A DNA stretch of 64,000 bases from Candidatus Moraniibacteriota bacterium (GTDB lineage: Bacteria > Patescibacteriota > Minisyncoccia > Moranbacterales > UBA2206), in NCBI GenBank assembly GCA_049303795.1, contig JBAQNM010000004.1, forward strand, positions 75,690 to 139,689, written 5' to 3'. The notes under the pieces were generated by a model. That model did no database searches, was not told the DNA's origin, and was given only the letters and a program-made list of their open reading frames with translations. The translations under genes were made by a program, and so were the position numbers. This document shows, one piece after another, positions 13,497 through 64,000 of this stretch (positions within the stretch are counted from its first letter, which is position 1; each line of letters starts with the position of its first letter).

Positions 13497-14010
13497 TTAT
13501 CTTTCTTCCCAATTTCCAGGACTACAAACATTCGTTCTACAACTCGAACTACACGTTTCTGGACAACCACCATTATTTACCCCATTGTCACAATCCTCAA
13601 ATAAACCCTTTATTCCGTCACCACAAACATCACAGTTATTAAACGTGCAACCTGCGCTACAAGTTTTTGGACAAACTCCATTGTTAGCACCTTTATCACA
13701 TAATTCACCTAATTCTAAAATTCCATTACCACACACGGAACAAGTGTTGCTCGTGCAGCTTGTGCTACAAATCTTTGGACAAACTCCATTGTTAGCTCCG
13801 TTATCACAAGTTTCAACTCCTTCCAAAACTCCATTACCACAAGTGGCTCCACCACAAGTGTTACTTGTACAAGTTGCGCTACAAGTCTTTGGACAAACTC
13901 CATTGTTGGCACCATCGTCACAAATTTCAGAGCCCTCTATAATCCCATTGCCACAAGTAACGCTACTGCAATCTTCTGTTCCAGCGGTATATCCACATCC
14001 ATTCCAACAA
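13497..14010. repeat. Four tandem ~37 aa Cys-rich repeats (CGNG...CDxGxNNGxCPxxCS)
   Basis: Visible in the translation of the 3' end of the 13497-15605 gene. The Pro-rich + strand ORF 13441-14037 is the antisense frame of these repeats. Confidence 0.7.
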
Positions 14011-15605
14011 TCAAAACCAAGGCAAGCATTGCAATAAAAAGGAGTGCAACCACCACAACCATCACAACTTCTAACAGTAACAGCCCCACTGCAAGAACCG
14101 ATTACTGATGGATTAAGAGTATTCCAAACTTTAAAATTACAACTTCTCGTTTGATCATCTCCGGAATTATTATAATATAATGCTGTAGCGTCAAGACTCT
14201 GTTCTATTGGATATGTTAGACTGTTATAAAAATAAGCTGGTGAATCATATGTACATACTCGATCAGTACATTCAAACTTATTGCAGGTATATTTTATTCT
14301 GTTAGCATTCCAAGCAGACACCGAGGCATCAGCAATTTCTCCTGAGTTAACAATACTATCATTACTATCATAAGCACAAGTCGGGCCATCACCTATTTGA
14401 GGAGGCTCGTCTCCGCTTCTGACTGAAACTCCACCGCCACATGTGGCTGTTTTATTATTGAAAGTATTTTTAACAGTAATTGTACAACTTCTTGTTTTTA
14501 AACTGCCTGAGGTATTATAGTAATAAAATGTAGCGCTATTATCTGCAAGAGGTAATGTATATACGGGAGAATTGTAATCATAGTTATCTTCATAATAACA
14601 CGTACCTGATGTGCAATTGAAATCAGAGCAAGTCCAACTAACTTCTTGGGCATTACTGGTGGTCAAATGTGTTTGAGCTGTCTTTCCTGAATCAATAGTT
14701 CCATCAGTTGAATAAACACAACTTGGACCATCAGGTGGAGGCGGTGTCACTACTGCGCCACTATGAACATTCACATTTCCATTGCAAGTTCTCTTCACGC
14801 TACTATTGGCACTACTCCAAACTGTGAATTTACAATTTCTTGATAAATCTTTGCCTGAATCATTATTAAATATAATCGAATTAGTTATAGTTCCATCAGA
14901 TGGTATATCAGTATTACCAGAATATGAATAGCTTTCATCATCATTGCAGGTTCCACCTGAGCACCTAAAGTTTGAGCAAACCCAACTAACCTTATCAGCG
15001 TGTGTGGCTGAAAACATTACGGTAATTGCAGCTCCCGAATTAGTGTCATATGAATAATCATTACAACTTGGCTCTGGGAAAGAATCTGCACACTTACCTT
15101 CTGCACAAACTTTTCCCGAACCACAAGCATGAATATCCTCACTTAATTTTTTATCTGCTGAGCAATAATACTCTTTTACTGTATTAGTATCAACACAATT
15201 ATCCCAAGCAGAGTCTTTATACGGATTAAATTCTACATATCCCTGTGTTGAATAATCCTTGCTATCAGAATCTACACAAATCATATCACATCTACCTTCA
15301 CTTGCTTTACAATAAGCATCCTCATAAAAACTGGTACAACTGTTAACGCTCTGATCAAGAGCACCTCCGGTACAAAAATATTCTGTCAAGTTGTTTCCAA
15401 CACAATTATCCCAAGCATCGTCAGCCTTAGTAGGCGTTCCATTGAAATCAGTATTACCTTGAATGAATGGCTTATTTCCACCATCAGAGTCAGTGCAAAC
15501 TGCTTTTGCTGATCCAACAAGAAAAAAAACAGATACGATCAGGACAAGGAAACTAGCAATTAATTTTTTATTCATATTCATAAATTTATTTTTTATCAAG
15601 AACAA
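13497..15605 (-). CDS. Secreted cysteine-rich repeat protein (702 aa), cassette 2 large protein; C-terminus ...CSPGNWEER
   Basis: Signal peptide (MNKKLIASFLVLIVSVFFLVGSAKA). Repeats of the C.FTVW.sanp..gtC.G type are shared with the 748 aa protein. The C-terminal region has four CGNG..E.GE.CD.GANNGVCPKTCS repeats resembling the Myxococcus cysteine-rich repeat. Confidence 0.8.
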   Translation of the reverse strand: MFLIKNKFMNMNKKLIASFLVLIVSVFFLVGSAKAVCTDSDGGNKPFIQGNTDFNGTPTKADDAWDNCVGNNLTEYFCTGGALDQSVNSCTSFYEDAYCKASEGRCDMICVDSDSKDYSTQGYVEFNPYKDSAWDNCVDTNTVKEYYCSADKKLSEDIHACGSGKVCAEGKCADSFPEPSCNDYSYDTNSGAAITVMFSATHADKVSWVCSNFRCSGGTCNDDESYSYSGNTDIPSDGTITNSIIFNNDSGKDLSRNCKFTVWSSANSSVKRTCNGNVNVHSGAVVTPPPPDGPSCVYSTDGTIDSGKTAQTHLTTSNAQEVSWTCSDFNCTSGTCYYEDNYDYNSPVYTLPLADNSATFYYYNTSGSLKTRSCTITVKNTFNNKTATCGGGVSVRSGDEPPQIGDGPTCAYDSNDSIVNSGEIADASVSAWNANRIKYTCNKFECTDRVCTYDSPAYFYNSLTYPIEQSLDATALYYNNSGDDQTRSCNFKVWNTLNPSVIGSCSGAVTVRSCDGCGGCTPFYCNACLGFDCWNGCGYTAGTEDCSSVTCGNGIIEGSEICDDGANNGVCPKTCSATCTSNTCGGATCGNGVLEGVETCDNGANNGVCPKICSTSCTSNTCSVCGNGILELGELCDKGANNGVCPKTCSAGCTFNNCDVCGDGIKGLFEDCDNGVNNGGCPETCSSSCRTNVCSPGNWEER

Positions 15606-26886: not shown

Positions 26887-27310
26887 GGGGATGCCTGGTT
26901 TCGACAGGTTGTACGTTTAAAATATGCAAGCCGAGGTTAATCATAACTCGTAAAACATGATTAAAAGTTATAAGTGCAAACTTACTAACAAAAGCAAGAA
27001 CTGCATTTGCTAACGCATTTACAGTAAACTTCGCTACCGCTCTTGCCTAATACCGATGTTCTCGGTTTAGCTTGAGTCATCGAACTTATCTACGCCCGAT
27101 AAATAAGTTTGGTGTCAAATTATCGGGATAGCTTCCAGCATCTTTCTTGAGTGCTAGAAGTGAAACAATTTCAGGGATAGAATAAAAAGGTTTGGTTTGT
27201 CTTTTACTTTTTATTCAACCCCGCCTTGGCGGTGAATTAAGACAAAATAAGCTTGTAGTATATTTTTGATGAATAATTTTGGACTCGAGTTCAACTCTCG
27301 CCATCTCCAC
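26887..27310 (+). ncRNA. ssrA: tmRNA (ssrA)
   Basis: 5' end GGGGATGCCTGGTTTCGACAGG and 3' tRNA-like end GGACTCGAGTTCAACTCTCGCCATCTCCA. An internal reading frame ends ...FATALA-stop. It lies immediately downstream of smpB. Confidence 0.7.
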
Positions 27311-27321
27311 GAAAATTAATC

Positions 27322-49220: not shown

Positions 49221-50819
49221 TTATTTTTTCATTCTCACTATTGCTAACTTTATTTTTTCATAACCAATACTGGCTGGCAGCTTAGCTTTAATTGGTGACA
49301 GTTTTTCTGTGCTTCCAATTTGAGAAACTACACGCGCGATTTTTTCTTCTTCAGAGGGAGAAAGAAAATCCTCTACTTTCAATTTTCCGCCTGAGGCATA
49401 CCAATCAATCAAGTGACCATAAATTGTTCTAATGCCCAATCCCCTGATTTTGGCAATTTTTTCGACGCTATATTTTTGCTCATATAGTTTCACGGTTTCT
49501 TTGATTGTGCCGGAAATGAATCCCTTCGATTTTTCGCCTTTAACCTTCTCGAATTTTTCTTGACCTTTAGTCGCTTTCCAATTTAGACAAACATCGCATC
49601 CGCGACAATTGCTCGGATGACTTAAAAGTTCCGGGTCATTAAAATATTCTAAAATCATCGTCCTGCGACATTTTTTACTAGTGGCATATTCCACCATCTT
49701 TTCCAAGCGATCATATTTTATATTCAAAATTTTCCACATTTCTGTTTGATCCTTGCCCTGATCCTGCATTTCACCTTTGCTCATGCGAATGAAAAATTTG
49801 TGCGTGTTAACATCTTTTTTAGCATGAAGCAAAACACAATAAGATTTTTCACCATCTCGCCCGGCACGTCCAGCTTCTTGATAGTAGCCTTCAAGACTCC
49901 CGGGCATACCTGAGTGGATGACAAAGCGGATGTCGGCTTTATCCACACCCATCCCAAAGGCCACGGTTGCCACAATCACCTGAAATTTATTTTCCATAAA
50001 ATCTTCTTGGACTTTTTCTCTTTTTTTCGCTTCCATCCCGGCGTGATAGGCTATCGCTTTGATCCCGTTTTCTTTTAGATATTTTGCAATAACTTCCGTT
50101 TCTTTTCTGGTGAGCGAATAAACAATCCCCGCGCCGGAAAGACTTTTTATAATGCGCAAAATTTCTTCATACCTTTCTTTGGTTTTCAAATCACACTGCA
50201 CTAGAAATTTCAAATTCGGCCGGTCAAATCCACGAATGAAAACTTTGGGATTTTTGAGCTCCAATCTTTCGATAATATCATCCTTCACTTCCGTTGTAGC
50301 CGTCGCCGTGAAAGCCGCCACAATCGGACGTTTTTTCAAATTACGAATATACTTTCTAATCTCCAAATAATCCGGCCGGAAATCATGTCCCCACTGCGAA
50401 ACACAATGTGCTTCGTCCACTGAAAACAAAAAAATGTCTAGCTCGGAAAAAAGTTTTTGAAATTGAGCATTACCAAAACGCTCAGGGGCAACATACAAAA
50501 TCTTGATTTGTCCGGTTTTTATTTTGACAATATTTTCCTGAATTTCTTCAAAGGTTAGTGAGCTATTGATAAAAACCGCCGGAATTCCTCGAGCATTGAG
50601 CGCATCCACCTGATCTTTCATCAGAGCAATCAGTGGAGAAATAACCACCGATAATTTATCCGCGATTATTGATGGCAACTGATAGCACAAGGATTTTCCC
50701 CCACCCGTTGGCATCAACGCAACTGTGTCATGCCCATTCATGATAGCTTCCACAATTTCTTTTTGCCCTGGACGAAACTGCGAAAAGTTAAAATATTTTT
50801 GTAAATTTTTTTCGAGCAT
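49221..50819 (-). CDS. recQ: ATP-dependent DNA helicase RecQ
   Basis: FRPGQKEIVEAIMNGHDTVALMPTGGGKSLCYQLP, DEAH box (FSVDEAHCVSQWGHDFR), Zn-binding Cys cluster and HRDC-like C-terminus. Start taken at the Met of MLEKNLQKYF. Confidence 0.85.
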   Translation of the reverse strand: MLEKNLQKYFNFSQFRPGQKEIVEAIMNGHDTVALMPTGGGKSLCYQLPSIIADKLSVVISPLIALMKDQVDALNARGIPAVFINSSLTFEEIQENIVKIKTGQIKILYVAPERFGNAQFQKLFSELDIFLFSVDEAHCVSQWGHDFRPDYLEIRKYIRNLKKRPIVAAFTATATTEVKDDIIERLELKNPKVFIRGFDRPNLKFLVQCDLKTKERYEEILRIIKSLSGAGIVYSLTRKETEVIAKYLKENGIKAIAYHAGMEAKKREKVQEDFMENKFQVIVATVAFGMGVDKADIRFVIHSGMPGSLEGYYQEAGRAGRDGEKSYCVLLHAKKDVNTHKFFIRMSKGEMQDQGKDQTEMWKILNIKYDRLEKMVEYATSKKCRRTMILEYFNDPELLSHPSNCRGCDVCLNWKATKGQEKFEKVKGEKSKGFISGTIKETVKLYEQKYSVEKIAKIRGLGIRTIYGHLIDWYASGGKLKVEDFLSPSEEEKIARVVSQIGSTEKLSPIKAKLPASIGYEKIKLAIVRMKK

Positions 50820-50839
50820 TGGTGTTTTTAAATTAACCT

Positions 50840-51832
50840 TTAAAATCCATTTATTCTTACTGATGTTCGTGCGCCACATCGAGTAATTTCAAAATTAGGA
50901 TCTTTTCTTTCAAGTTTTACCATCTTATTGCCCAGAATAGATCTGCTATATAAAATATAAGCATCATCAACAAGATATACGCCTAATTGGAATGAACCTT
51001 GTTGGCAATCAATAACTTGATCGTTTTTTTCCATATAACACAAAAATTCAACTATCCATTCTTCTGGAGTTTGACCAGATTCTCCTTGATATTGCTTTTC
51101 AGTTTGAATTAATTTTAGATATTTTTTTGGAGCATCATGTATTTCTAATTGTTTTCGACCATTAATTATTTTGCCTTTACCTTCTTCAGGCATATTCATA
51201 TCACCCTCTCTAAAAATAATTAAATAACCGGGAATTGATTTTTGAGCGTTAATAAGTTGTTTTTTTGTTTTCCCTTGATGATTTTCATAAGAGAAACCAT
51301 TAACATCATAAACTAACTCGTTTTTCTCATCAGCGTTAGCATACATTTCATTAATATAAACTGGCTCATTTATGTCCAAATCAAAAGGCATCAGTTCCTC
51401 AATTTTACTTTCTTTATTCCTTTTAACATAAAATAACTTTCCTTCTTTATGATGTTTGAGCAATTGCCTTTTGAGTGTTTCGATGAGCTTACTTAACGGC
51501 ATCGCAAACGGTACAATCTCAAGCTCTGTAAATCCTTGTTTCATCTTAGTTTCAAACATTTCTTTGTTTTTTAAGATGGCAGTTCTAATTTCATTCATCG
51601 TGGGCAGATCATAAGTTTGACCATCAATACCCAGAATTCTCATTTTGACATCCGTTCCGTCTATTTGAGTTTCATTGTTTTCATCAATCCAAGTTCTTGG
51701 CATGGGAGAAATTAATCCTAATTGATTGAGAATCTTAGCTTTATCTTCATACTGATTTTTCAGTTCTAAAGACAGCCATCTTTCTAGGGTGGATGGTTCT
51801 TGAGATTCTGGGTTGGGGAATTCGTGGGACAT
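50840..51832 (-). CDS. Paralogous family protein A (330 aa), unknown function
   Basis: N-terminal ~125 aa about 80% identical to 51861-52853 and 56025-57020 (STLERWLSLELKNQYE.KAKILNQLG.ISPMPRTWIDENNETQIDGTDVKMRI.GIDGQTYDLP). The C-terminal half is diverged; the C-terminus is GARTSVRINGF. Confidence 0.55.
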   Translation of the reverse strand: MSHEFPNPESQEPSTLERWLSLELKNQYEDKAKILNQLGLISPMPRTWIDENNETQIDGTDVKMRILGIDGQTYDLPTMNEIRTAILKNKEMFETKMKQGFTELEIVPFAMPLSKLIETLKRQLLKHHKEGKLFYVKRNKESKIEELMPFDLDINEPVYINEMYANADEKNELVYDVNGFSYENHQGKTKKQLINAQKSIPGYLIIFREGDMNMPEEGKGKIINGRKQLEIHDAPKKYLKLIQTEKQYQGESGQTPEEWIVEFLCYMEKNDQVIDCQQGSFQLGVYLVDDAYILYSRSILGNKMVKLERKDPNFEITRCGARTSVRINGF

Positions 51833-51860
51833 AGTTATTTTTTAAATATAAAAACTAGAT

Positions 51861-52853
51861 TTATAATACTCTTACGGACGAACGCGCACCATTGCCCTCA
51901 AACTGAAACCCCGGATTATTCCGATACAAGAAGGCCTGATGATTGTCTTGGTGCCAGCTAGTTGATGGAACAGCGACAGAAAGCGGGAAAAACCCACCCA
52001 ACTGGAAAGAAGCCTTGCTATTTCCCTGATAGTCATCGATTACTTGATTATGTTTTTCCAATGTAGTTAGAAATTTAGTAATCCATTCTTCCGGAGTTTG
52101 ACCTTGTTCATTTTGATACGCCCTTCCCGTTCTTAGAAACATTAGATAGTCATCAGGAGAAATATTAGCTTCCAACCTCTCCCTCCCGCTAATTACTTCC
52201 CCATGATTTCCTCTTGGAATATTCGGATTTTTTTCATTGAGCGTAATAATAAAACCTTTTTTACTTTCTTTTAAAATTTCTTTTTTGGTTTTTCCTTGAT
52301 GATTGTCTCTGATGAATTTTTTGGGATAATAGACTATCGTTCCTTCAGTGTCAGCATTATCATAACCTTCCCATTTGTTGATTGGGCCGCTTTCATCTAA
52401 TTCCAGTTTTTGCAGTGGTTCATTCTCATCATCAATGTTTTTCTTAGCCGTGAATAGCTTTCCCTCCTTATGATGTTTTAGAATAGTTCTTTCCATTGTT
52501 TTGATAAGCTGATCAAGTGGCATCGCGAAAGGTATGATGTTTAAATCAGTAAACCCTTGCTCCATCTTTTTTTCAAACATTTCTTTGTTTTCTAGAATGG
52601 CAGTTCTAATTTCATTCATCGTGGGCAGATCATAAGTTTGACCATCAATTCCCATAATTCTCATTTTAACATCCGTTCCGTCTATTTGAGTTTCATTATT
52701 TTCATCGATCCAAGTTCTAGGCATGGGAGAAATAATTCCAAGTTGATTGAGAATTTTGGCTTTAGATTCATATTGATTTTTCAGTTCTAAAGATAGCCAT
52801 CTTTCTAGGGTGGATAGTTCTTGAGATTCTGTTTTGGGAAATTCGTGGGACAT
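51861..52853 (-). CDS. Paralogous family protein B (330 aa), unknown function
   Basis: As for A; C-terminus GARSSVRVL. Confidence 0.55.
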   Translation of the reverse strand: MSHEFPKTESQELSTLERWLSLELKNQYESKAKILNQLGIISPMPRTWIDENNETQIDGTDVKMRIMGIDGQTYDLPTMNEIRTAILENKEMFEKKMEQGFTDLNIIPFAMPLDQLIKTMERTILKHHKEGKLFTAKKNIDDENEPLQKLELDESGPINKWEGYDNADTEGTIVYYPKKFIRDNHQGKTKKEILKESKKGFIITLNEKNPNIPRGNHGEVISGRERLEANISPDDYLMFLRTGRAYQNEQGQTPEEWITKFLTTLEKHNQVIDDYQGNSKASFQLGGFFPLSVAVPSTSWHQDNHQAFLYRNNPGFQFEGNGARSSVRVL

Positions 52854-52874
52854 AGAATTTTATCGCTAATTATT

Positions 52875-55800
52875 TTATTCTAAACTTTTGTGCCAAACAT
52901 GTTTTTCATAGAAATGAGGCTTGTTCAAATCTTCACCAGTATTAAGATCGTCATAAATTTTTGATTCCGGATCGCCAGAATTGTCATCCAATGCTCTCAG
53001 GCGAATCAGTTCAATTTGCTCATCCGTGTATTCTTCCGGCAAGTTTCCTTTTCCTATTGATCCGCCATGTTGTTCGGCAATGGCAATTGTTTTTATCGGA
53101 AGTCCTCTGAATATTTTTTCCACTCCAGTAAGAATTGCTTCAACTTGATCTTGGTCTTCCACGCCAGGAGCATAATAAATTCCATTAAGCAAAATTGCCA
53201 ATTTTCCTTCTTCATCAATTCCAAAACTTCCAAAAATGAAACCTAGATTTTCTTTGGCTTGTTTTTTTTGCTCCCCTTCTTGACTGGCTATCTCCGGCTC
53301 TTCTAGCGAAACAACGAAAGAAAGTGGATCGGCATTGATTGAAGCTACCCAATATTTGTTTTGAGTTTGAAACTGAATAGTCTGCTCATAATTAATGCTG
53401 GAAAAGCAACAGATTTTACTATCAGCAAAACGAACCATATTCATAAATCTTTCCGTCTTATCTAGATATTGCAAATTTAAAAGTTTGCGCTTTCGCATAT
53501 CTCCACCAATTGGTCTTTGGTAAGTTTTTGAATCGGTAATCGCCCGAAAAGGTCCCTGGAGATGACTTTCCATTTCCTGAATCAAATGCACATCGCTCTC
53601 CCTGAAACGTTCTTCACCCAAGGCTTGCATGGTGATGTAGGTGAAAATTGCGCTAGGCGATTTTTCTGTTAAGGCTAAAATTTCATTGCCCAGTTTTTCA
53701 ATTTCCGCTTCTTTTTCTTCCTTGCTCAAATGAGCAAATCTTTCTTGAATTTTTTCATCACCCAAAAGGCTTTTTTCTTTATCCAGCTCTTTCAATTCTT
53801 CTTCGATTTTCTGGATTTTTTCTTCCAGCTCTTTTTTGACACTTGCATTTTCTTGATTTTCTAGACCCTTCAAAAGATTGTTTCGCGCTTTTCTTTTTTT
53901 GTAAATATTTTTTTGGATGTTCGATTCTTTTTCATTTACACCTTTCAATATAACCAGCAACTCTTTTTTGATTTTTTTAAGATCGAGACGTTTCACGTCT
54001 AGTTTCGGCAAAATTTCTTCACCTCTCACTGGCACTGAATTTTCTGAAAAAACTTGGGCAAGCGAAACATCCAATACCATCTTTTCTCCCAAAGCTCTCC
54101 AAGTATCTTTCATCTCTACGTGCGCTCTTTCCCGAAATCCGGGAAAACCAGCTTCGATTTCATCTATCAGAGCCAAGCGATCGACAAAAGTTTGCGCGCC
54201 TTTCATTTTTTCGATTAAATTTTCATTCTTATCTTCTTCTAAATATTCACGATAAAACGGGAAAAGAAAAATAACGCCAAGTTGTCTGCGACCAAGTACT
54301 TGTCCAAGTTCCCGATTAGCATTCTCGACCAAGGCATTCTCTCGAACATCAAAACTAACTTCTTGCGAAGCTTGCTCTTTCGGCAAAGGAAATTTTCCTT
54401 GCCTTAGATTTTCAATTATTTTTTCCGCTTCTTCTTCCGTAATTCCATTTTCAATCAATGATTGCTTGAATTTTCTAATCGGTTTTTCGTGTATTTTCAA
54501 ATTATCAATCAATCCAATCATTTCTTTAAATTTATCAAAACCATAGTTGTTAATTAAGTTGAAACGATCATCTCCACCGTGAAGCAGATAATAAATCATA
54601 GCGTCATTTTCATTTTCGGAAAGTTTTTCTACCAGTTCGCGATTATTCTCTATCCCAGAAAACATCTCTTGACTCGCTTTTATTTTTTCAATTCTTTCCA
54701 CGAGTGGCGCGTCTTTCCATTTTTTGTCATTAGAGATAAAATTCAAAATTTCACGACTAGGCACTACACCTAAATCAGTGATAACACTTTTGACTATTTC
54801 CAGCGATTGCATTTCAGCTTCCACGCCATCTTTACACTTAGCCTTTTCTTCACTCCACCAAGTTTTGAGGTCTTGGGAAAGATAATTATTGTCAATTAAT
54901 TTTCCAAGGAGATAGACTGACAAATGACGATTGAGCTTTCTGTCTCCAGCCAATTTAAGTGCAATGTCATTCCCCCGCCAATCCTCAAAATTCTCCAAGA
55001 AAACCTTGAGAATTCTAGATAGATAATCTTGTTCTTTCTTTTCTTTTCCTTCTCCTTCTTCATCTCGAATAAGCTCTAGTAGCAATTGTCGGGAATCCTC
55101 ACCCAAACTGCCCAGAGCCTCACTCAAAAGTATGACAATTTGTTCGTCATTTTTTTCGCCTTTTGCAACTGTATCACGCAGTTCCTTATGCAGTCGCAAC
55201 CGCACATTTCTTCTTTGCACCTCTTCAAGACTCTTACTTTCAACAATTGATTGATGCAGAAATCTTGAAGTTGAAACATCAAAAATTTGTGAGATTATTT
55301 TTTTCTTTTCCTTAGGAATCAGATCCAGAAACTTGACCCTTTCCGCTTCAGGCAAAACCAAAGCATAACTTTCCAATAACTTAGCATCATTCAAAATCTC
55401 CTGAGCAATTCTCTCTTTTTCCGGCAGTGGCAATTTCTTTATTCGACGAAATTGGATTCCTAAAAGCGTTGCATCAGCAAAAAAACTAGCGGGTGTATCT
55501 TTGGGAATATCCTTGGATTTCTCTGTACATTCAGAGGCAGATTTCAATTCATCATCAAAATCCTCTCCGCATTGTTCTTTGGCTTTCGCGGATTGAGAAT
55601 ATAGATAAGCGGAAAAATTGGGAAACAAATTCTCATTTTCGCTAGCTTCATTGGAAAAATTTTCTGATTTTTTCTTCAAATCTTCTTTTGAATCTCCACT
55701 CTCTTTCCATTCTCCCTTAGCTTCCTGAAAAACGAGATTGAGTATTTTTTCCCAAGCGCGAAGCATCGCCTCATTGCCTGCTGGTTTTGACAAATTAAGC

Positions 55801-55940
55801 ATTTCGATTTTGAACCGTTGGCCTCTCTTTCGAAAATCAGCCCGCGCTTCAATCGAACGTTTTTCCTCCACGCTCAAAATTTCCGCTGGAGTTTCTTTTT
55901 TAGGAAAAAGTCTATTTATTTTTTGCTCAAATTTTAGCAT
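52875..55940 (-). CDS. Large hypothetical protein (1021 aa), charged/helical, unknown function
   Basis: Uninterrupted 3 kb ORF between paralogues B and C. No recognisable catalytic motif. Confidence 0.55.
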   Translation of the reverse strand: MLKFEQKINRLFPKKETPAEILSVEEKRSIEARADFRKRGQRFKIEMLNLSKPAGNEAMLRAWEKILNLVFQEAKGEWKESGDSKEDLKKKSENFSNEASENENLFPNFSAYLYSQSAKAKEQCGEDFDDELKSASECTEKSKDIPKDTPASFFADATLLGIQFRRIKKLPLPEKERIAQEILNDAKLLESYALVLPEAERVKFLDLIPKEKKKIISQIFDVSTSRFLHQSIVESKSLEEVQRRNVRLRLHKELRDTVAKGEKNDEQIVILLSEALGSLGEDSRQLLLELIRDEEGEGKEKKEQDYLSRILKVFLENFEDWRGNDIALKLAGDRKLNRHLSVYLLGKLIDNNYLSQDLKTWWSEEKAKCKDGVEAEMQSLEIVKSVITDLGVVPSREILNFISNDKKWKDAPLVERIEKIKASQEMFSGIENNRELVEKLSENENDAMIYYLLHGGDDRFNLINNYGFDKFKEMIGLIDNLKIHEKPIRKFKQSLIENGITEEEAEKIIENLRQGKFPLPKEQASQEVSFDVRENALVENANRELGQVLGRRQLGVIFLFPFYREYLEEDKNENLIEKMKGAQTFVDRLALIDEIEAGFPGFRERAHVEMKDTWRALGEKMVLDVSLAQVFSENSVPVRGEEILPKLDVKRLDLKKIKKELLVILKGVNEKESNIQKNIYKKRKARNNLLKGLENQENASVKKELEEKIQKIEEELKELDKEKSLLGDEKIQERFAHLSKEEKEAEIEKLGNEILALTEKSPSAIFTYITMQALGEERFRESDVHLIQEMESHLQGPFRAITDSKTYQRPIGGDMRKRKLLNLQYLDKTERFMNMVRFADSKICCFSSINYEQTIQFQTQNKYWVASINADPLSFVVSLEEPEIASQEGEQKKQAKENLGFIFGSFGIDEEGKLAILLNGIYYAPGVEDQDQVEAILTGVEKIFRGLPIKTIAIAEQHGGSIGKGNLPEEYTDEQIELIRLRALDDNSGDPESKIYDDLNTGEDLNKPHFYEKHVWHKSLE

Positions 55941-56024
55941 ATTATTTCAAAATTCGATTTAACTATTTTTTTATTTTTTATATTAAATTTTAAATCTAAG
56001 TTCTAATCTGCCAAAAAACAAAAA

Positions 56025-57020
56025 TCATAAAACCCTCACGGACGAACGCGCGCCATAGTCCCCATTCCGATACTCAGGATCGTACCTACCAAAATTGGCC
56101 CGCCGACCGGCGCGGAACCAGTAAGCATTCGGGACATTGCCAGAAAATGGAAAATATGCACCCAGTTGAAAAGAAGCTTTGCCGTTCCCCCTATAACCAT
56201 CAATCACTTGATTATACTTTTCCAACGTAGTCAGAAATTTAGCAATCCATTCTTCTGGAATTTGTCCTTGCTCGTTTTGGTATTGCGCTTCTGTCTGAAG
56301 CATTTCTAAGTAATCATTTGATGCTTTATTAGCTTCCAATCTTTTTCTCTCACCAATAATTTCATTTTGGTTTTCTTTTGGTATATTGGGATTTTTTTCA
56401 TTGAATGTAACAATAAAACCTTTTTTGGTTTTTTCAAGAATTTCTTTTTTAGTTTGGCCTTGATGATTGTCTCTGATGAATTTTTTGGGATAATAGACTA
56501 TTTTTCCTTCAGTGTCAGCGTTATCATAACCTTCCCATTTGTTAACTGGTTCACTCCCTAATTCTAATGGCTCTAACTTTTCATTTTCATCATCAATATT
56601 TTTCTTGAGCGTAAACAGTTTTCCTTCTTTGTGATGTTTAATCAAAGTTCTTTCCATTGTTTTAATAAGTTGATCAAGTGGCATGGCAAAAGGAATGATG
56701 TTTAAATCAGTAAATCCTTGCTTCATCTTTTTTTCAAACATTTCTTTGTTTTCCAGGATAGCAGTTTTGATTTCTTCCATTCTGGGTAAATCATAAGTTT
56801 GACCGTCAATTCCCAGAATTCTCATTTTGACATCCGTTCCATCAATTTGAGTTTCATTATTTTCATCAATCCAAGTTCTGGGCATTGGAGAGATAATCCC
56901 GAGTTGATTGAGAATTTTAGCTTTAGATTCATATTGATTTTTCAGTTCTAAAGACAGCCATCTTTCTAGGGTGGATTCTTGTTCATGGGATTTGATTGTT
57001 GGAGGAGTTTCGGGGAACAT
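56025..57020 (-). CDS. Paralogous family protein C (331 aa), unknown function
   Basis: As for A and B; C-terminus GARSSVRVL. Confidence 0.55.
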   Translation of the reverse strand: MFPETPPTIKSHEQESTLERWLSLELKNQYESKAKILNQLGIISPMPRTWIDENNETQIDGTDVKMRILGIDGQTYDLPRMEEIKTAILENKEMFEKKMKQGFTDLNIIPFAMPLDQLIKTMERTLIKHHKEGKLFTLKKNIDDENEKLEPLELGSEPVNKWEGYDNADTEGKIVYYPKKFIRDNHQGQTKKEILEKTKKGFIVTFNEKNPNIPKENQNEIIGERKRLEANKASNDYLEMLQTEAQYQNEQGQIPEEWIAKFLTTLEKYNQVIDGYRGNGKASFQLGAYFPFSGNVPNAYWFRAGRRANFGRYDPEYRNGDYGARSSVRVL

Positions 57021-57101
57021 AGGATTTTATTGTTAATTCAAATCTGTTTTATCATAAAAATAAAAGCATGTCTGTTTTAAAATTTTAGGAAAATAAATAC
57101 C

Positions 57102-60100
57102 CTAATCCTTAATCACTACCGCACCTTTATCACTTTTTAATTTCTTAAATAAAACATATTTTGTTCCATTGTAATAACGACAGAAATTATTAGAAATAAT
57201 TTCTTCTTTGGGAATTTCTTCAATTCTTCGTCCTTTTTTCAAGCTTTCCGCTTCGGCAATTATCGCCTGTTCTTCTTCCAAAATTCGTTGATCTGTTTCG
57301 TTCAGTTTGATTGGATAATCCTTCCCATTTAAATTAAACTCGCTAATAATCTTGCGCGTATCTTTGAGACTGACTTTACCGGATTTTTTTTCTGAAAATT
57401 TAAACCACTTAATATTTTCCCTACCAATTTCTTCTATCATATCATCAAAATCAATTTCCAGATCTTCCACTTTTTTTATTGTCAAAATTTTTGCTTTATA
57501 ATTATTTCCGGAGGAAATTTCTCCGCTTTCATTTTCCACTATTTCAAATCCCAATTTCCTAAGGTTTTCAAAAAAACCGGCGGATTTTTTATAATCAAAA
57601 GAATAATCAAAAATAATCGCCACACGCCCATCTTTTTTTAAAACTCCATTCAACTCATAGAAAATTTTGGCTCTTTCATAATCTTCATTTTTGATCACTA
57701 AGCTTGATTCCTGAATTGCCAAATTGAGCGTAGCATAATCAAATGTTTTTTCTTTGAATGGCAAATTAGCAAAACTGCCTGCCACTGCCTTTCCTGAAAC
57801 CGCCTTAGCAAAATGATGAGCATTGAGATCAAGACTAAAAATATTTTTTTGCATTTCCACGCTAGAATGTTTGTATAAAAGTTCCGGTCCGCTAGCTAAA
57901 TCAATGACTTGCATTTTCCCGCCATTTTTTCCAGCCCCTTTCGACATGCGCTCTATAATTGATGCGCTCACTCTGGCAGTATTGGCCTGATAACTGCGTG
58001 CGCCCAATTCCTTATAGCACTCGGCATAACTTTCACCGTGCTGAAGTAGAAAATCAGAAAAATTTTTCTCTCCGATTTCTTTGGTATAGCCAAACATGCG
58101 CATTAATCTTTCCCAGGAGGAAAAATAATATTCGGCAAATTCGGCGTTAACTTCCAAACTGGAATCAAATTGTTTTTCATCTTTTTCTAGCATGGCTTTT
58201 TCCGCTTCGCTAATCGGAACTCCGGAGATTAATTTTTCAATCGCTCTTTCTTTAGTTCGAATATAACTATAAATTCCTTCTTCGATAGAATTAGAAGTGA
58301 CCATTGTCACGGCTGACAAATCATGTTTGAGGCCTTCGCGATAAGCGCGACCGATTTGTTGTTTTTTATCATAAATTGTCCAAGGTTCGTTATAATGAAT
58401 AACTTTATCTGCACCGGAAAAATCCACGCCAACATCCGCTGTGTCACCACTGACAAATAATACCATCTTCCCTTCGCCATTATTAAACTCATTTTGAATA
58501 TTCGTTCTTTGAGCGCGATCATCCTTGCCATGGATAGTTCGCACTACGACATTTTGTGGCAAATCAAGTTTAGGAATAATATTTTTTTCTCCCCGAATAA
58601 CATTTTCCACGTAGTCATTCACAAAAACAACAATCCTATCATTCACTGCCAAGGATTCATGCAACTCATCTTTGAGCGCAGAAATTTTACTGCCTTCAAT
58701 TTTTTCCGGAGCGGTAATATCCAGCATTTCCGGATTAAGCAAAAACTGGCGCATAATCTGAATTTTTTGCATCGCTGTCAATTCGTCTTCTTCGAGCAAT
58801 GTTTCATAGAGTTCTTTTTCCAACTCTGTCATTTCGATTCTTCTTTCTTCCACCAGAAACTCAGGCATGGCGATACTTTCCGCCAATTGTTTTTTCTGCA
58901 TTCGCGGAATAAGCAGATTTCGTAAATCAAGCATTTCGCCTCTGATGATTCTTTGCGATAACGTTTCGTTTTCCACCTCTTGATTCCCCACGTAAAATTT
59001 TTCCGGATAAAGCAATTTAAGAATCATCGCCACATCACTCACCTTGTTTGGCACCGGAGTACCAGAAAGAAGCGCTAGATATTCTTCCTCGCCTTGAATT
59101 TTTTGCGCCAATCTTTCCACATTTTCAAAACGCACGCCTTTGATATTTTTTATTTTATGCGCCTCATCCACAATCAACATATCAAAACCAGAATTTTCCA
59201 AAGAAGCTACATATTCATCTTTCATTTTTTCCTGAGAAATTAAAATGTAGTCAAACGGCTTATTTAATTTTTCAAGATCATCCAAAGATTTAATTATTAG
59301 AACTCTCGGAGCCAATCCCTTCTGAAAATATCCGTCTTTTTCATCGGACAAATATTTTTCCCACGTATCTTCGACATTACTTGGAACAATGATCAAGGCT
59401 TTTTTGAGTCCCAAATATTCCTTAGCCAAAATAACTGACGCACTTTTTCCCAGCCCCATCTCATCGGCAATCAACATTTTCTTTTTTTCTTTTATTTCTT
59501 GAATATTAACTAGCTGATTGATGTCCGGAAAAGTTCTTCCATGTTTTAGACTTTCCAAAATGCAATCTGGCTTTTTAAGATCGAGCAGAGAAAAATAATA
59601 GCCTTCCGCCTCAGTTATAATTTCCCAAAGCTCATCATCCTCTAAGCTCAACACTTCACTGCCCAATCTATCCAGCACTATTTTTATCAGTTGTCGAATA
59701 TCATCAATCTGGGCCTTTTTTTGCTCCTTTTGACAATCAGCCAAAATTCTTTCTTTTACTACTTCGAGTAGAGCGCTTTTGAAATCCGGATTGGATAGCA
59801 GTTCTTTACACGGCTCAAAAGTTGTCCAGTCGAGTGGTCTTTTTTGCATGGCGACTTCTCCCAAATATTCTGCCAGCTCACCATTTATATAATCCATTGG
59901 AATGCCTTTGAAATTTGGATGAAAATGTAAAAGGATATCTGTCATACGCGAAGAGCCAAAAAACGCCATCGCTTGTTCAATTTTTTTTGCATCAACCTTG
60001 CCTTCGCTAAGATTTTTCAAATATTCACTTAGCTCAATTCTATTCTCCTCAGATTTTCTTCTTTCCGCACCGACATTCACTCTTTTTATTTCCGGAAAAG

Positions 60101-61565
60101 CAAGGTTGATAAGATTGATCATGTTTTCAAGATTATCTTTTTTTGTACCAAAATTTTTAAGAAGTGTTCCACCCTTTCTCTTTTCAAGTCCGCTATCAGC
60201 ACCAAAGATTGTTTTTCGAAATTCTCCACTATCACAAAAACGTAAATCGATTGAAGAATTTTCTAACAATTTCTTGAGATGCTTCGGATTAGTATAGTCA
60301 AATTTTTCACGAACGATACCTATAGAATTTAGTAGAGCAATCATATTCTCAGCATCTGCATTTCCTGTGCCAAAATTTTTAAGAAGCACATGACCCACTC
60401 TTTTTTCAAATACACTGTCAACGCCAAAGGTTGCTTTTTGAAATTCTGTTGAGCCACAATTAGTTAGATCGATTGGCGAAGCATCAAACAATTTTTTAAG
60501 GTGTCCTAGATTTGAATAATCAAATTTTTCTCGAGCAATTCCAACAAAATTTAAAAGTGCAATCATATTATCAAAATCTACAACTTTCGTTCCGAAATTT
60601 CTAAGCAATGTCGTGCCTTTTCTTTCTTTAAATCTGCTACCAATACCAAAAGTTGCTTTTCCGAAATCACTAAAGCTACAAGAGATTAAATCAACTGGAG
60701 AATAGCTAAACATTTCTTTTAAATTTTCCAGATCAGCATATCCACATTCTAACTTTTTTTGCTTACAAGCAATTCCAGCAAAACTTAGAAGTGCAATCAT
60801 ATTGCTAGTGTTTACTTTTTTTGTACCAAAATTTTTAAGAAGTGCTGTGCCATTTTTCTTTTCAAATCTACTATTAGCACCAAATACTCCCTCCTGAAAT
60901 TCCACTAACCCGCAGGCAGTTAAATCAATTGTGGATTCTTTAAATAACTCACTAAGCTGCTCCGCGTTAGAGTAATCACATTCTGGCTTTTTTTGTTCAC
61001 GAGTGATTCCGACAAAATTTAAAAAAGCGACCATATTTTTAATATCTGCAACTCTTGTCCCAAAATTTTTAAGAAATGAATAGCCTCCTCTTTTTTCAAA
61101 TCTACTCTTGGCGCCAAAGGTTGCTCTCTGAAATTCACTACTGCCACAAGTCAATAAATCAATTGGTGAGTCCTGAAACATTTCTCGTAAATGCTCTGGG
61201 TTGGAATAACTACATTCTGGTTTTTTTTGCTCGCGAGCAATTCCGACAAAATTTAAAAGAGCGACCATATTGCTAAAATCTTGTTTTTTTGTACCAAAAT
61301 TATTAAGCAACGTTGCGCCTATCCTTTCTTTGAATTTATTATTAACGCCAAAGGTCGTTTCTGTAAATTCTCGCGCGCTGCAAATTGCCAAATCGATTGG
61401 CGAATCCTTTAGCATTTCTCGCAAGTGCTCTGGATTAGAATAATCGAGTTTTTCTTCAACTTCTTGTTTTTCTTTATTTTTTTCTTCAGCACAAATCTGA
61501 CAACTCATTTTCGGATTGCCATGCGCACACAATTGACTTGGGTTTGGAAATTTAAATTCGGACAT
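57102..61565 (-). CDS. Multidomain protein: six ~75 aa tandem repeats, SNF2-family helicase, and C-terminal SAM-methyltransferase-like domain (~1488 aa)
   Basis: SNF2 motifs: LIADEMGLGKSASVILAKEY (motif I), LIVDEAHKIKN (DEAH box), LLSGTPVPNKVSDV, and helicase-C ...IGRAYREG. C-terminal KMQVIDLASGPELL and GVLKKDGRVAIIFDY resemble methyltransferase motif I and a post-I motif. Start taken at the ATG at 61565. Confidence 0.7.
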   Translation of the reverse strand: MSEFKFPNPSQLCAHGNPKMSCQICAEEKNKEKQEVEEKLDYSNPEHLREMLKDSPIDLAICSAREFTETTFGVNNKFKERIGATLLNNFGTKKQDFSNMVALLNFVGIAREQKKPECSYSNPEHLREMFQDSPIDLLTCGSSEFQRATFGAKSRFEKRGGYSFLKNFGTRVADIKNMVAFLNFVGITREQKKPECDYSNAEQLSELFKESTIDLTACGLVEFQEGVFGANSRFEKKNGTALLKNFGTKKVNTSNMIALLSFAGIACKQKKLECGYADLENLKEMFSYSPVDLISCSFSDFGKATFGIGSRFKERKGTTLLRNFGTKVVDFDNMIALLNFVGIAREKFDYSNLGHLKKLFDASPIDLTNCGSTEFQKATFGVDSVFEKRVGHVLLKNFGTGNADAENMIALLNSIGIVREKFDYTNPKHLKKLLENSSIDLRFCDSGEFRKTIFGADSGLEKRKGGTLLKNFGTKKDNLENMINLINLAFPEIKRVNVGAERRKSEENRIELSEYLKNLSEGKVDAKKIEQAMAFFGSSRMTDILLHFHPNFKGIPMDYINGELAEYLGEVAMQKRPLDWTTFEPCKELLSNPDFKSALLEVVKERILADCQKEQKKAQIDDIRQLIKIVLDRLGSEVLSLEDDELWEIITEAEGYYFSLLDLKKPDCILESLKHGRTFPDINQLVNIQEIKEKKKMLIADEMGLGKSASVILAKEYLGLKKALIIVPSNVEDTWEKYLSDEKDGYFQKGLAPRVLIIKSLDDLEKLNKPFDYILISQEKMKDEYVASLENSGFDMLIVDEAHKIKNIKGVRFENVERLAQKIQGEEEYLALLSGTPVPNKVSDVAMILKLLYPEKFYVGNQEVENETLSQRIIRGEMLDLRNLLIPRMQKKQLAESIAMPEFLVEERRIEMTELEKELYETLLEEDELTAMQKIQIMRQFLLNPEMLDITAPEKIEGSKISALKDELHESLAVNDRIVVFVNDYVENVIRGEKNIIPKLDLPQNVVVRTIHGKDDRAQRTNIQNEFNNGEGKMVLFVSGDTADVGVDFSGADKVIHYNEPWTIYDKKQQIGRAYREGLKHDLSAVTMVTSNSIEEGIYSYIRTKERAIEKLISGVPISEAEKAMLEKDEKQFDSSLEVNAEFAEYYFSSWERLMRMFGYTKEIGEKNFSDFLLQHGESYAECYKELGARSYQANTARVSASIIERMSKGAGKNGGKMQVIDLASGPELLYKHSSVEMQKNIFSLDLNAHHFAKAVSGKAVAGSFANLPFKEKTFDYATLNLAIQESSLVIKNEDYERAKIFYELNGVLKKDGRVAIIFDYSFDYKKSAGFFENLRKLGFEIVENESGEISSGNNYKAKILTIKKVEDLEIDFDDMIEEIGRENIKWFKFSEKKSGKVSLKDTRKIISEFNLNGKDYPIKLNETDQRILEEEQAIIAEAESLKKGRRIEEIPKEEIISNNFCRYYNGTKYVLFKKLKSDKGAVVIKD
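60125..61450. repeat. Six tandem ~225 bp (75 aa) coding repeats at the 5' end of the SNF2/MTase gene
   Basis: Protein repeat consensus YSNPEHL.E.F.DSPIDL..C...EF..ATFG..SRFEKR.G..LLKNFGTK..D..NMIALLNFVGIAREQ. The DNA copies are recognisably similar but not identical, and in frame. Confidence 0.75.
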
Positions 61566-61595: not shown

Positions 61596-61632
61596 AAAAA
61601 CCGGCCTTGCCTAAACAAAACCGGTTTTAAAA
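61596..61632. terminator. Bidirectional terminator-like hairpin
   Basis: aaaaccgg (61597-61604) - 16 nt loop - ccggtttt (61621-61628), flanked by A and T runs. Confidence 0.4.
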
Positions 61633-62595: not shown

Positions 62596-63738
62596 TCAGA
62601 ACGGGTAAATTATTCCTGCGTCTTTGACTTCCGGTGCCTGATAAGCAACGTATTCTTCTTCGCGAAATTTATCAAACGCCGCAATGGTGCACTTTTCCGC
62701 ATCATCAGGATTGCCTGTCCCATCGAACTTTTCAAGGTAGGAATACATTGCGGCAGTCTCATTCGTGAAAATTGCGCCCTGTCCTTTCCATTTTCCTTCA
62801 GAAATCAATTCGAGCATAATATTCTCAAACTTTCCTTTTTGATTTCCAAAACCAGGTACCCAGAATGTCCCATAGGGACATAATTTACGAAGCATTCCTG
62901 TGGCTCGATGAGTCGAACCAGCCACCAGACCAAAAGGTGAGAGTTCGTCATAGATGAGGCCGTATTGTTGAGTCCATCTGCCCACATCTTCAGCTACACA
63001 CTCTTCCAGTGTTTTCCCGCGCTGAGGAATAAATAATTGTTGGTAATCCGGTCCGCTATCATTGGACGACTTGCAGACCACAATTATGCCTTTGCCTTTT
63101 TCCCGCATCAATCTCAATCCTTGCGCAGGAATGACGTTTTTCTTTTTTGCTTCATCAAGCAAGACAACGTCCTTCCCCATGTATATCAGAGTGTTCATCG
63201 TGTCGTATGGTAGATATGAGTGATCCATTTCGAGCTTTTCAAGGCTACCTATGAATCGGTTAAAATATCCGATCATTGTGGCCCCGAGATCACCTCGTTT
63301 GCAATCATGTTGGTAGATAATGCGGGTGTCCAGTTTTTTTTCAAGTTGCCGCATATAATCCACGACTCGCATCATCATGAAGTCACCGGGTGGACCCCAT
63401 TCTTGATACACTCCGTCCTGATCTTTGAATGTCCGAAGACCACAGACTTCAATCCAAATTCGAAGCATTTTCTTGGTGTAAATCTCGGCGGCCGCCATAA
63501 TCCCCGCCTTCACACGACGCATTTCCGGATCTTTCATATTGGTTAGTTCCAACAGCTTGAGATAATATTCATATTCCTCCCCGCTGGTAACACGTCCGTA
63601 AATGGCGTAGTTTTCTTCGCGTCCGGTGAACATGTGCGGACACGGCCCTGGGCACAAAAGTGTTTTTTGTACTCTTTGTGCCACTGCCAGTTCGTGATGT
63701 GCATGCTCAATCTGCATAAGTGGTAAATTTTCTGTCAT
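62596..63738 (-). CDS. GC-anomalous gene; possible OMP-decarboxylase-fold (TIM-barrel) protein
   Basis: Start at the ATG at 63738 with SD AAGGAG 9 nt upstream. IIYQHDCKRGDLGATM resembles the D-x-K-x-x-D-I-x-x-T motif of the ODCase/KGPDC fold. GC is about 44%. Confidence 0.3.
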   Translation of the reverse strand: MTENLPLMQIEHAHHELAVAQRVQKTLLCPGPCPHMFTGREENYAIYGRVTSGEEYEYYLKLLELTNMKDPEMRRVKAGIMAAAEIYTKKMLRIWIEVCGLRTFKDQDGVYQEWGPPGDFMMMRVVDYMRQLEKKLDTRIIYQHDCKRGDLGATMIGYFNRFIGSLEKLEMDHSYLPYDTMNTLIYMGKDVVLLDEAKKKNVIPAQGLRLMREKGKGIIVVCKSSNDSGPDYQQLFIPQRGKTLEECVAEDVGRWTQQYGLIYDELSPFGLVAGSTHRATGMLRKLCPYGTFWVPGFGNQKGKFENIMLELISEGKWKGQGAIFTNETAAMYSYLEKFDGTGNPDDAEKCTIAAFDKFREEEYVAYQAPEVKDAGIIYPF

Positions 63739-64000
63739 GATTTCACGTCTCCTTTTCATTTTCTCTTCATTTTTTTAGGTGCTTTTGAGCAGCCTATGCA
63801 AAATGCATATCTGCCACACTCTCCATCTGTCGGCTTTTTACAATCTGATGCTGGCTTTGCATTAAACTTTTTTCCATTTGAATTTTTTGGCATAAGCTTC
63901 ATTTCTCCTTTTATAATAAGAGTTCATAAAACTTCACAAAAAAATGCATCTATATATAACTGCTTTTGGCAGTGTTAATTTTTAACGAACTATTTATAGA

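Follow-up and report, generated by a model that had tools for sequence, protein, structure and literature searches.

A probable orphaned target cassette of a Patescibacteria-specific diversity-generating retroelement in a Candidatus Moraniibacteriota genome

Mismatches at the adenines of a template repeat (TR) are the defining signature of mutagenic retrohoming by diversity-generating retroelements (DGRs), whose known variable proteins include Mtd of a Bordetella phage, TvpA of Treponema and TaqVP of Thermus. In bacteria belonging to the candidate phyla radiation (CPR, or Patescibacteria), DGRs constitute approximately 80% of reverse transcriptases (PMC8632793). A DGR clade specific to these bacteria (“clade 2” of Roux et al. 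2021, PMC8144416; the “CPR set” of Wu et al. 2018, PMC5758913) has unannotated cellular targets, which carry no membrane or other recognisable domains and whose role is an acknowledged open question (PMC8144416). The CPR-type architecture B3 combines a reversed avd gene, a TR and a reverse transcriptase (RT) gene (Wu et al. 2018). Here we describe a 64-kb stretch of a metagenome-assembled genome (MAG) of Candidatus Moraniibacteriota, hereafter the window, in which three paralogous genes (parA, parB and parC) accompany a gene for a 1021-residue protein. With a probability of roughly 80%, the segment 50840–57020 that holds these four genes is an orphaned and frozen, RT-less copy of a target cassette of the Patescibacteria-specific DGRs.

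Like Mtd, TvpA and TaqVP, the paralogues have a C-type-lectin/formylglycine-generating-enzyme (CLec/FGE) fold. They differ from these proteins in that the window copies stand without TR, Avd and RT, form a set of three paralogues, tandem or flanking, of which one has a decayed variable region (VR), and possess an N-terminal domain without known relative. The unannotated cellular targets of the CPR clade are also among their closest described counterparts. The core order of architecture B3 recurs in the related loci L001, L004, L005 and L026–L046 (L numbers denote the loci compared here), with targets on one or both sides, except that the related loci insert a conserved gene for a protein of about 1020–1070 residues between the RT gene and the downstream target. 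This gene falls outside the accessory classes avd, HRDC, MSL and CH1 of Wu et al. 2018 (PMC5758913). The window, in turn, keeps the 1021-residue gene and the targets without the B3 core.

An original prediction had joined the four genes with two neighbours on the same strand, recQ and a gene for an SNF2–methyltransferase fusion, into one system of defence or DNA modification in which the paralogues act as variable specificity proteins. The specificity role has been borne out, in the form of DGR-type ligand-binding proteins, and the linkage of the paralogues to the 1021-residue gene is genuine, since the two are adjacent in related loci. The defence or DNA-modification operon centred on the fusion has not survived the comparison given below, and a DGR had not been considered.

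DGR cassettes of related genomes and their imprint in the window

The paralogue and 1021-residue families are adjacent in all four long related contigs (L001, L003, L004 and L005) and co-occur in about 22 of 28 loci overall; 24 further loci were obtained by a scan of Joint Genome Institute (JGI) metagenomes, where gene order was established by six-frame searches with hidden Markov models (HMMs). In L001, L004 and L005, a bAvd gene and an RVT_1 reverse transcriptase gene are located directly upstream of the 1021-residue gene, and the RT gene overlaps its start. The cassette reads paralogue, TR, Avd (minus strand), RT (plus), 1021-residue gene (plus) and paralogue (minus). Among the loci that extend far enough to be informative, the RT gene is directly upstream of the 1021-residue gene in 19 of 22. 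Beside Avd, each of the three cassettes possesses a TR of about 115 nt. Its identity to the 3'-terminal parts of the adjoining paralogue genes is 83–88%, and the mismatches between TR and VR fall at TR adenines in 22/24, 20/22, 17/18, 19/20, 14/16 and 8/8 cases (100/108 together). In these relatives, copying of the TR RNA by the RT, with errors at adenines, would yield a cDNA that replaces the 3'-terminal segments of the adjoining paralogue genes.

With 30 clusters among 5.8 billion proteins, the paralogue family is small, and it has no match in Pfam, NCBIfam, PADLOC or PHROGs. Paralogy of the three proteins of about 330 residues, which the original prediction had claimed, is confirmed by identities of 77% between B and C, 58% between A and B and 57% between A and C, and the diverged parA attains 422 bits with the family HMM. 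For paralogue C, an AlphaFold2 model built from an alignment of 26 sequences reached a predicted local distance difference test score (pLDDT) of 92 and a predicted template modelling score (pTM) of 0.90, and it displays the CLec/FGE fold expected of a DGR variable protein. The family alignment has hypervariable last ~40 residues set within an invariant framework, S.QLGAYF..S..VP...W.R..R.A.L.....P.......GARSS.RV. When DGR-linked relatives are clustered at 90% identity, variants of the same cluster differ from each other almost solely at residues ~281–311. The paralogues are of a soluble type, with a maximum Kyte–Doolittle hydropathy over 19 residues (KD19) of ≤1.0 and no hydrophobic segment compatible with a membrane span, which fits the published remark on CPR DGR targets (PMC8144416). 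The three paralogues are very probably soluble DGR variable proteins composed of a conserved N-terminal domain and a C-terminal CLec/FGE-fold domain, the last ~40 residues of which would, according to the model, form the diversified ligand-binding surface.

The paralogues had been described as constant in their N-terminal and variable in their C-terminal halves, which is correct for A compared with B and C and incorrect for B compared with C. Between the latter two, only the last ~40 residues vary in excess, with a nucleotide identity of 62% there and of 81.5% elsewhere in the gene. A codon-for-codon alignment of both 3' ends with the TR and the VRs of L001 is possible. At the positions of adenines in the L001 TR, parB and parC are identical in 8 of 36 cases, which is about the random expectation, whereas at the other VR positions they are identical in 65 of 82, a level that matches the remainder of the gene (p = 6e-9 in Fisher's exact test). 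Moreover, AAC and AAT codons of the TR correspond to NNY codons in both genes, with the third base kept. An alternative scenario, in which the paralogues diverged by duplication, drift and positive selection on the binding surface and no DGR was ever present in the lineage, would agree with the local absence of RT and TR and with the differences between B and C outside the VR. It does not account for the concentration of differences at the TR-adenine positions of a relative, for the NNY pattern or for the invariant VR framework that is common to actively diversified homologues, and we regard it as highly improbable. The imprint points instead to the same machinery having once written the VRs of parB and parC in the lineage of the window and left differences at adenine-templated positions. 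The VR-equivalent of parA resembles no TR, with only 33 of 82 non-adenine positions matching the L001 TR, and this gene has probably drifted further by ordinary mutation.

Searches with RT and Avd HMMs of the clade, with tblastn and, for the VRs, with sensitive blastn identified no RT, Avd or TR in the 64-kb window and 10 kb to its right; the additional 10 kb were taken from the same locus in a second assembly (L007). Thus the adjacent cognate RT and Avd found in 19 of 22 related loci are missing here. In place of about 1.5 kb of TR, Avd and RT in the relatives, the window has an AT-rich spacer of 84 nt with a promoter-like site (TTGGCA-16-TAAAAT), and this spacer contains no TR remnant. A scan of a genome-contig collection with the TR-like pattern ATGGYGCGCGTTCGTCCGT returned 14 chance matches in high-GC genomes; the VRs of the window itself were not returned, so the window genome lies outside that collection. 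The VR of parC is identical at the DNA level in L007 and the window, and the parC and parB proteins are each represented by a single sequence across four NCBI MAG assemblies, whereas DGR-linked relatives show VR-restricted variants; population-level hypervariability of the VRs is thus absent at the protein level across these four assemblies. Because the imprint is kept, the machinery is absent from 74 kb and parB and parC are invariant across assemblies, we read the locus as once diversified and now static. TR, Avd and RT would have been lost after the VRs were written, with the spacer now in their place and the VRs apparently frozen.

Three observations weigh against this interpretation. First, the adenine positions in the imprint test were taken from the TR of another genome, L001. 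Second, the VRs of parC and L001 have one and the same 3' end, GAGGGTTTTATGATTT, which resembles an initiation-of-mutagenic-homing (IMH) site. Third, the search for RT and TR covered about 74 kb of the window genome, which leaves room for a distant DGR acting in trans. The last two points also favour a rival explanation, in which parC and perhaps parB are still diversified by an RT, Avd and TR located elsewhere in the genome. Non-adjacent targets are tabulated in Wu et al. 2018 (PMC5758913), and several DGRs are often present in one CPR genome according to PMC10907252, which cites Paul et al. 2017. This explanation is unlikely: the invariance of parC and parB among the four assemblies contrasts with the VR variants found within 90%-identity clusters of DGR-linked relatives, the parC VR is unchanged in the second assembly, the IMH-like end of parB and the whole VR of parA have drifted, and the RT is local in most of the related loci. 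Loss of the RT, rather than service in trans, would be the more plausible origin of the present arrangement.

Two features of the related cassettes were recorded in addition. A (GA)n tract, with n = 5–15, is present in 13 of 18 RT genes of related cassettes (L001 14567–15539 on the minus strand, L005 868–1819, L026 767–1758, L027, L030, L031, L032, L036, L038, L039, L041, L045 and L046), all outside the window. It occupies a fixed site, 19–32 nt upstream of the stretch that encodes the conserved PIGNLTSQ motif. In the assembled consensus, the reading frame is shifted across the tract in all ten complete RT genes with n ≥ 7, both +1 and -1 shifts being represented, and the RT genes without the tract are intact. 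As judged from these sequences, the pattern suggests slipped-strand phase variation, or programmed slippage, that would turn the mutagenic RT on and off; in the literature, a text search retrieved no paper that ties DGRs to phase variation at simple sequence repeats. Small genes of the 23S_rRNA_IVP family, four-helix-bundle proteins related to bAvd, occur at L001 11032–11379, adjoining a variable-protein gene, and at L009 22555–22923, near an ABC-transporter operon. They have no counterpart at the window locus.

The 1021-residue protein and RT-less modules

The 1021-residue protein has 53 full-length homologues at 42–83% identity, all of which belong to Patescibacteria. No match to it was found in Pfam, NCBIfam, PADLOC or PHROGs. 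No invariant column of the alignment of these 53 sequences is altered in the window protein, and this conservation is the main argument that it is still functional in the absence of a local RT. The invariant residues of its C-terminal domain include D840, S841, C844, C845, N919, G920, Y922, Y923, D997 and D998. No member of this family occurs among the viral contigs of IMG/VR; a phage origin was rejected on this ground, and the result is in keeping with the DGR clade that Roux et al. 2021 (PMC8144416) described as cellular and restricted to CPR.

Modules that combine the 1021-residue gene and paralogues without RT were found in three further lineages, represented by L003, L034 and L047, with 1021-residue proteins that are 38–50% identical to that of the window and mutually divergent. 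In L034, a paralogue fragment is located directly upstream of the 1021-residue gene, as in the window, and in L047 paralogue genes on the opposite strand are both upstream and downstream of it. The array of L003 includes seven tandem paralogues, among which p2 and p7 retain the canonical VR framework and p1 and p3–p6 have diverged C-termini. This module occupies positions 9980–19528 of L003 (ENA k141_114668), with a partner of 1030 residues followed by the seven paralogues, and adjoins genes for a serine recombinase, a TraG/VirD4-like coupling protein, a Replic_Relax protein and DUF3768. Given these neighbours, it is possibly located on an integrative mobile element.

The AlphaFold2 model of the 1021-residue protein (pLDDT 83, pTM 0.68) comprises about 800 residues of helical repeats and then an alpha/beta domain at ~810–1021. 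In Foldseek searches against the PDB, the C-terminal domain gave a consistent, weak series of GNAT acetyltransferases (E 0.2–1, probability up to 0.95, target TM-score 0.4–0.54), and the remainder matched ARM/HEAT-like solenoids. NAA80, NatD/NAA40, SSAT, the tabtoxin-resistance protein and AtaT are among the GNAT acyltransferases that superpose on the C-terminal domain. The window protein differs from them in having no sequence-level match and no evident motif for the acetyl-CoA pyrophosphate loop, and in the fusion of the domain to the ~800 residues of helical repeats. The model suggests a helical scaffold with a weakly GNAT-like C-terminal domain. Profile searches of the PDB with the paralogue and 1021-residue families returned noise only, with E = 0.32 for a 64-residue domain and E = 0.13 for the Pol lambda 8-kDa domain. 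A profile search of 1.84 billion representatives yielded 289 relatives of the 1021-residue family at 50% clustering; single parts of it (N-terminal, middle or C-terminal) reappear in proteins as long as 2682 residues. Six distant relatives carry no informative Pfam domain, and the gene context of one of them (P0086) contains no DGR.

Since the 1021-residue protein is retained intact with the variable proteins even where the RT is missing, we infer that it is a functional partner of these proteins rather than a retrohoming factor. The soluble CLec proteins may bind ligands via the former VR surface, and the 1021-residue protein may be a scaffold or effector that acts on whatever they bind; both steps are proposed at lower confidence than the history of the cassette. 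Two facts stand in the way of this assignment. The GNAT match is weak, with Foldseek E > 0.1 and no canonical Q/RxxGxG/A motif recognised by eye in the loop that precedes helix 930–943 of the model. A role in retrohoming would likewise be compatible with the tight coupling of the RT and 1021-residue genes, which in most loci are overlapping ORFs (open reading frames). No description of the protein was found in the literature consulted, which did not include Paul et al. 2017 (Nat Microbiol).

A rival explanation follows the second of these facts and makes the 1021-residue protein a new DGR accessory for cDNA synthesis or homing, with the window copy as a relic that has not yet decayed. In almost every locus that has a DGR, the RT and 1021-residue ORFs share a strand, and the latter begins right at the end of the former or overlaps it. 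The accessory gene classes avd, HRDC, MSL and CH1 were discovered in the same way (Wu et al. 2018, PMC5758913); the very weak profile match to the Pol lambda 8-kDa domain points in the same direction. We nevertheless consider an accessory role doubtful, given that four independent loci without RT (the window, L034, L047 and L003 with its seven paralogues) keep the protein at full length with all family-invariant columns, that domains of the protein also occur in much larger proteins outside DGR contexts, and that no fold of a nucleic-acid enzyme was detected in it.

Neighbouring genes and the defence hypothesis

The six minus-strand ORFs have the order and spacing given in the original prediction (Table 1). 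The intergenic gaps are 81, 84, 21 and 28 nt, and parA overlaps the longest recQ ORF by 40 nt. The sequence at 61596–61632, proposed as a terminator, does contain a hairpin with a stem of 6–7 bp and a loop of ~16 nt; it was not called by a terminator scan.

Table 1. Positions of the cassette, its variable-region equivalents and the adjoining genes in the window
Feature	Position	Strand	Remarks
recQ	49221-50879	-	RecQ-family helicase; neighbour outside the module
parA (paralogue A)	50840-51832	-	330 aa; family member diverged from B and C
VR-equivalent of parA	50851-50977	-	decayed; resembles no TR
parB (paralogue B)	51861-52853	-	330 aa; probable DGR variable protein
VR-equivalent of parB	51866-51983	-	3' IMH-like end drifted
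1021-aa gene	52875-55940	-	conserved partner of the variable proteins
AT-rich spacer, 84 nt	55941-56024	-	between the 1021-aa gene and parC
parC (paralogue C)	56025-57020	-	331 aa; probable DGR variable protein with CLec/FGE fold; best-preserved copy
VR-equivalent of parC	56030-56147	-	codon-for-codon alignment with the L001 TR and VRs
SNF2–methyltransferase-like fusion	57102-61565	-	neighbour outside the conserved module

The fusion protein has 1487 residues from the ATG used as the start in GenBank and 1497 residues from an upstream GTG. Its proposed domains were largely recovered. An SNF2 ATPase is present (SNF2-rel_dom E = 7.6e-20, Helicase_C E = 2.1e-15), with the DEAH box at residue 800, and six repeats of 74–78 residues (period 222–234 nt) are encoded at 60081–61450. 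The methyltransferase-like C-terminus barely passes the Pfam threshold for Methyltransf_11 (22.4–24.2 bits against a cut-off of 21.2; 24.2 for the window protein and 21.9 for its orthologue P0087, covering model positions 1–95 of 95), and it lacks the features of a DNA methyltransferase. Motif I is degenerate (DLASGPE), no [DNS]PP[YFWH] motif (motif IV of DNA amino-methyltransferases) is present anywhere in the fusion or its orthologues, and a phmmer search with this region found no PDB relative. The N-terminus contains a CxH...CxxC cluster that precedes six to eight repeat copies, the number varying between orthologues. The repeat of about 75 residues follows the consensus DYSNPEHL...SPIDL..C..EF....FG..S.F..R.G..LL.NFGTKK.D.ENMIALLNF.GI.RE and has only faint Pfam matches to HTH_62 and SAM-like.

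The fusion is lineage-specific, with only three real relatives, all from Moraniibacteriota or Parcubacteria; the only full-length ones are P0087 and P0088, which are 70–71% identical to it. Its orthologues in L009, L010 and L011 are flanked by pfkB and a Y1-transposase-like gene on one side and by genes for acetyl-CoA synthetase, a response regulator and recJ on the other, and HMM scans identified no paralogue, 1021-residue, RT or Avd gene near them. Conversely, the 28 loci with the 1021-residue family have RT, Avd or paralogue genes instead of the fusion, and no SNF2 gene is present in the four of them with annotated gene tables (L001, L003, L004 and L005). Conservation of paralogue and fusion pairs, the context that had been put forward for examination in other genomes, is thus absent in either direction. 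Scattering of the components without co-occurrence had been named beforehand as a finding that would count against the defence reading, and on this ground the reading fails.

The encoded RecQ helicase possesses DEAD, Helicase_C, RecQ_Zn_bind and HTH_40 domains and no HRDC domain, and scores 469 bits with TIGR00614 recQ_fam (cut-off 220) and 221 bits with DpdF (cut-off 550). The gene is not adjacent to the module in L001–L005. A role for RecQ as a DGR accessory of the HRDC type was ruled out, given the missing HRDC domain and the lack of a conserved neighbourhood.

The systems to which the fusion and RecQ could be likened are DISARM (DrmD with DrmMI or DrmMII), BREX (BrxHI/HII and PglX), Zorya (ZorD) and Dpd (DpdE/DpdF), which share with them a superfamily-2 ATPase core of the SNF2 or RecQ type; a further likeness to defence helicases is the methyltransferase-like domain in the same polypeptide as the SNF2 core. 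The window differs from all of them in the absence of partner genes (DrmA/B/C, PglZ, BrxC/L, ZorA-C, DpdA-D and others), in a methyltransferase-like domain of the Methyltransf_11 type without DNA methyltransferase motifs, and in the housekeeping neighbourhood of the fusion orthologues. A PADLOC check returned only generic matches of the fusion to ZorD, DpdE and DrmD and nothing for the paralogues or the 1021-residue protein. Against the NCBIfam equivalog cut-offs, the scores of the fusion are far too low in every case, 10–50 times under the threshold (DrmD 54/610, DpdE 71/500, ZorD 29/1500).

The idea that all six genes constitute one novel system around the fusion, with the paralogues as its sensors, draws on the common strand, the short gaps, the combination of an SNF2 ATPase with a marginal domain that resembles S-adenosylmethionine-dependent methyltransferases and the generic PADLOC matches. 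Set against the lack of co-occurrence, defence scores far below curated cut-offs, the missing PADLOC matches and DNA methyltransferase motif, and paralogues that are fully explained as DGR targets, it is close to untenable. The fusion and recQ are best treated, on the sequence evidence, as unrelated neighbours of the cassette that happen to share its strand.

Elsewhere in the window, large minus-strand ORFs contain tandem intragenic repeats with periods of ~339–345 nt at 4848–5831 and ~108–114 nt at 13632–13967, and the repeat regions 4848–5831 and 13632–14520 share related 49-nt segments. Only one Rfam family reaches gathering threshold in the window, namely a tmRNA gene at 26887–27312 on the plus strand (RF00023, 154 bits). 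The block of higher GC content at 36–44 kb consists of protein-coding ORFs and not of rRNA genes. A 387-residue protein encoded at 62596–63759 on the minus strand has no Pfam match and a sub-threshold match to orotidine-5'-phosphate decarboxylase subfamily 2 (71 versus 110.6 bits), and may be a divergent PyrF-like protein.

Implications for Patescibacteria

DGRs, CLec variable proteins and their abundance in CPR bacteria are already known. In the literature consulted, exclusive of Paul et al. 2017, we found neither the obligate partner gene of about 1000 codons wedged between RT and target in this clade nor the recurrent survival of partner and targets after RT loss. The locus illustrates that one such target family always travels with this strongly conserved partner, that the pair outlives the retroelement in several lineages, and that the paralogue arrays then drift apart. 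For annotation, one false candidate defence system is removed, and an SNF2 gene beside variable paralogues should not by itself be taken as a defence island. For experiments, the locus offers a concrete protein pair for tests of interaction and activity, as well as a natural “frozen” counterpart to the actively diversifying cassettes.

We tentatively propose, as a possibility of rather low probability, that the 1021-residue protein and the soluble CLec proteins constitute a previously undescribed, Patescibacteria-wide intracellular module for recognition and effector action. If this is true, the DGR would keep renewing the binding subunits, and captured targets, for example phage or host-cell proteins, would be modified by the large partner or elicit signalling by it. 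Such a module could persist in a hard-wired form, as in the window, after a useful specificity has been fixed. It would also provide a first functional handle on why the DGR targets of CPR bacteria lack membrane or other recognisable domains, the question left by Roux et al. 2021.

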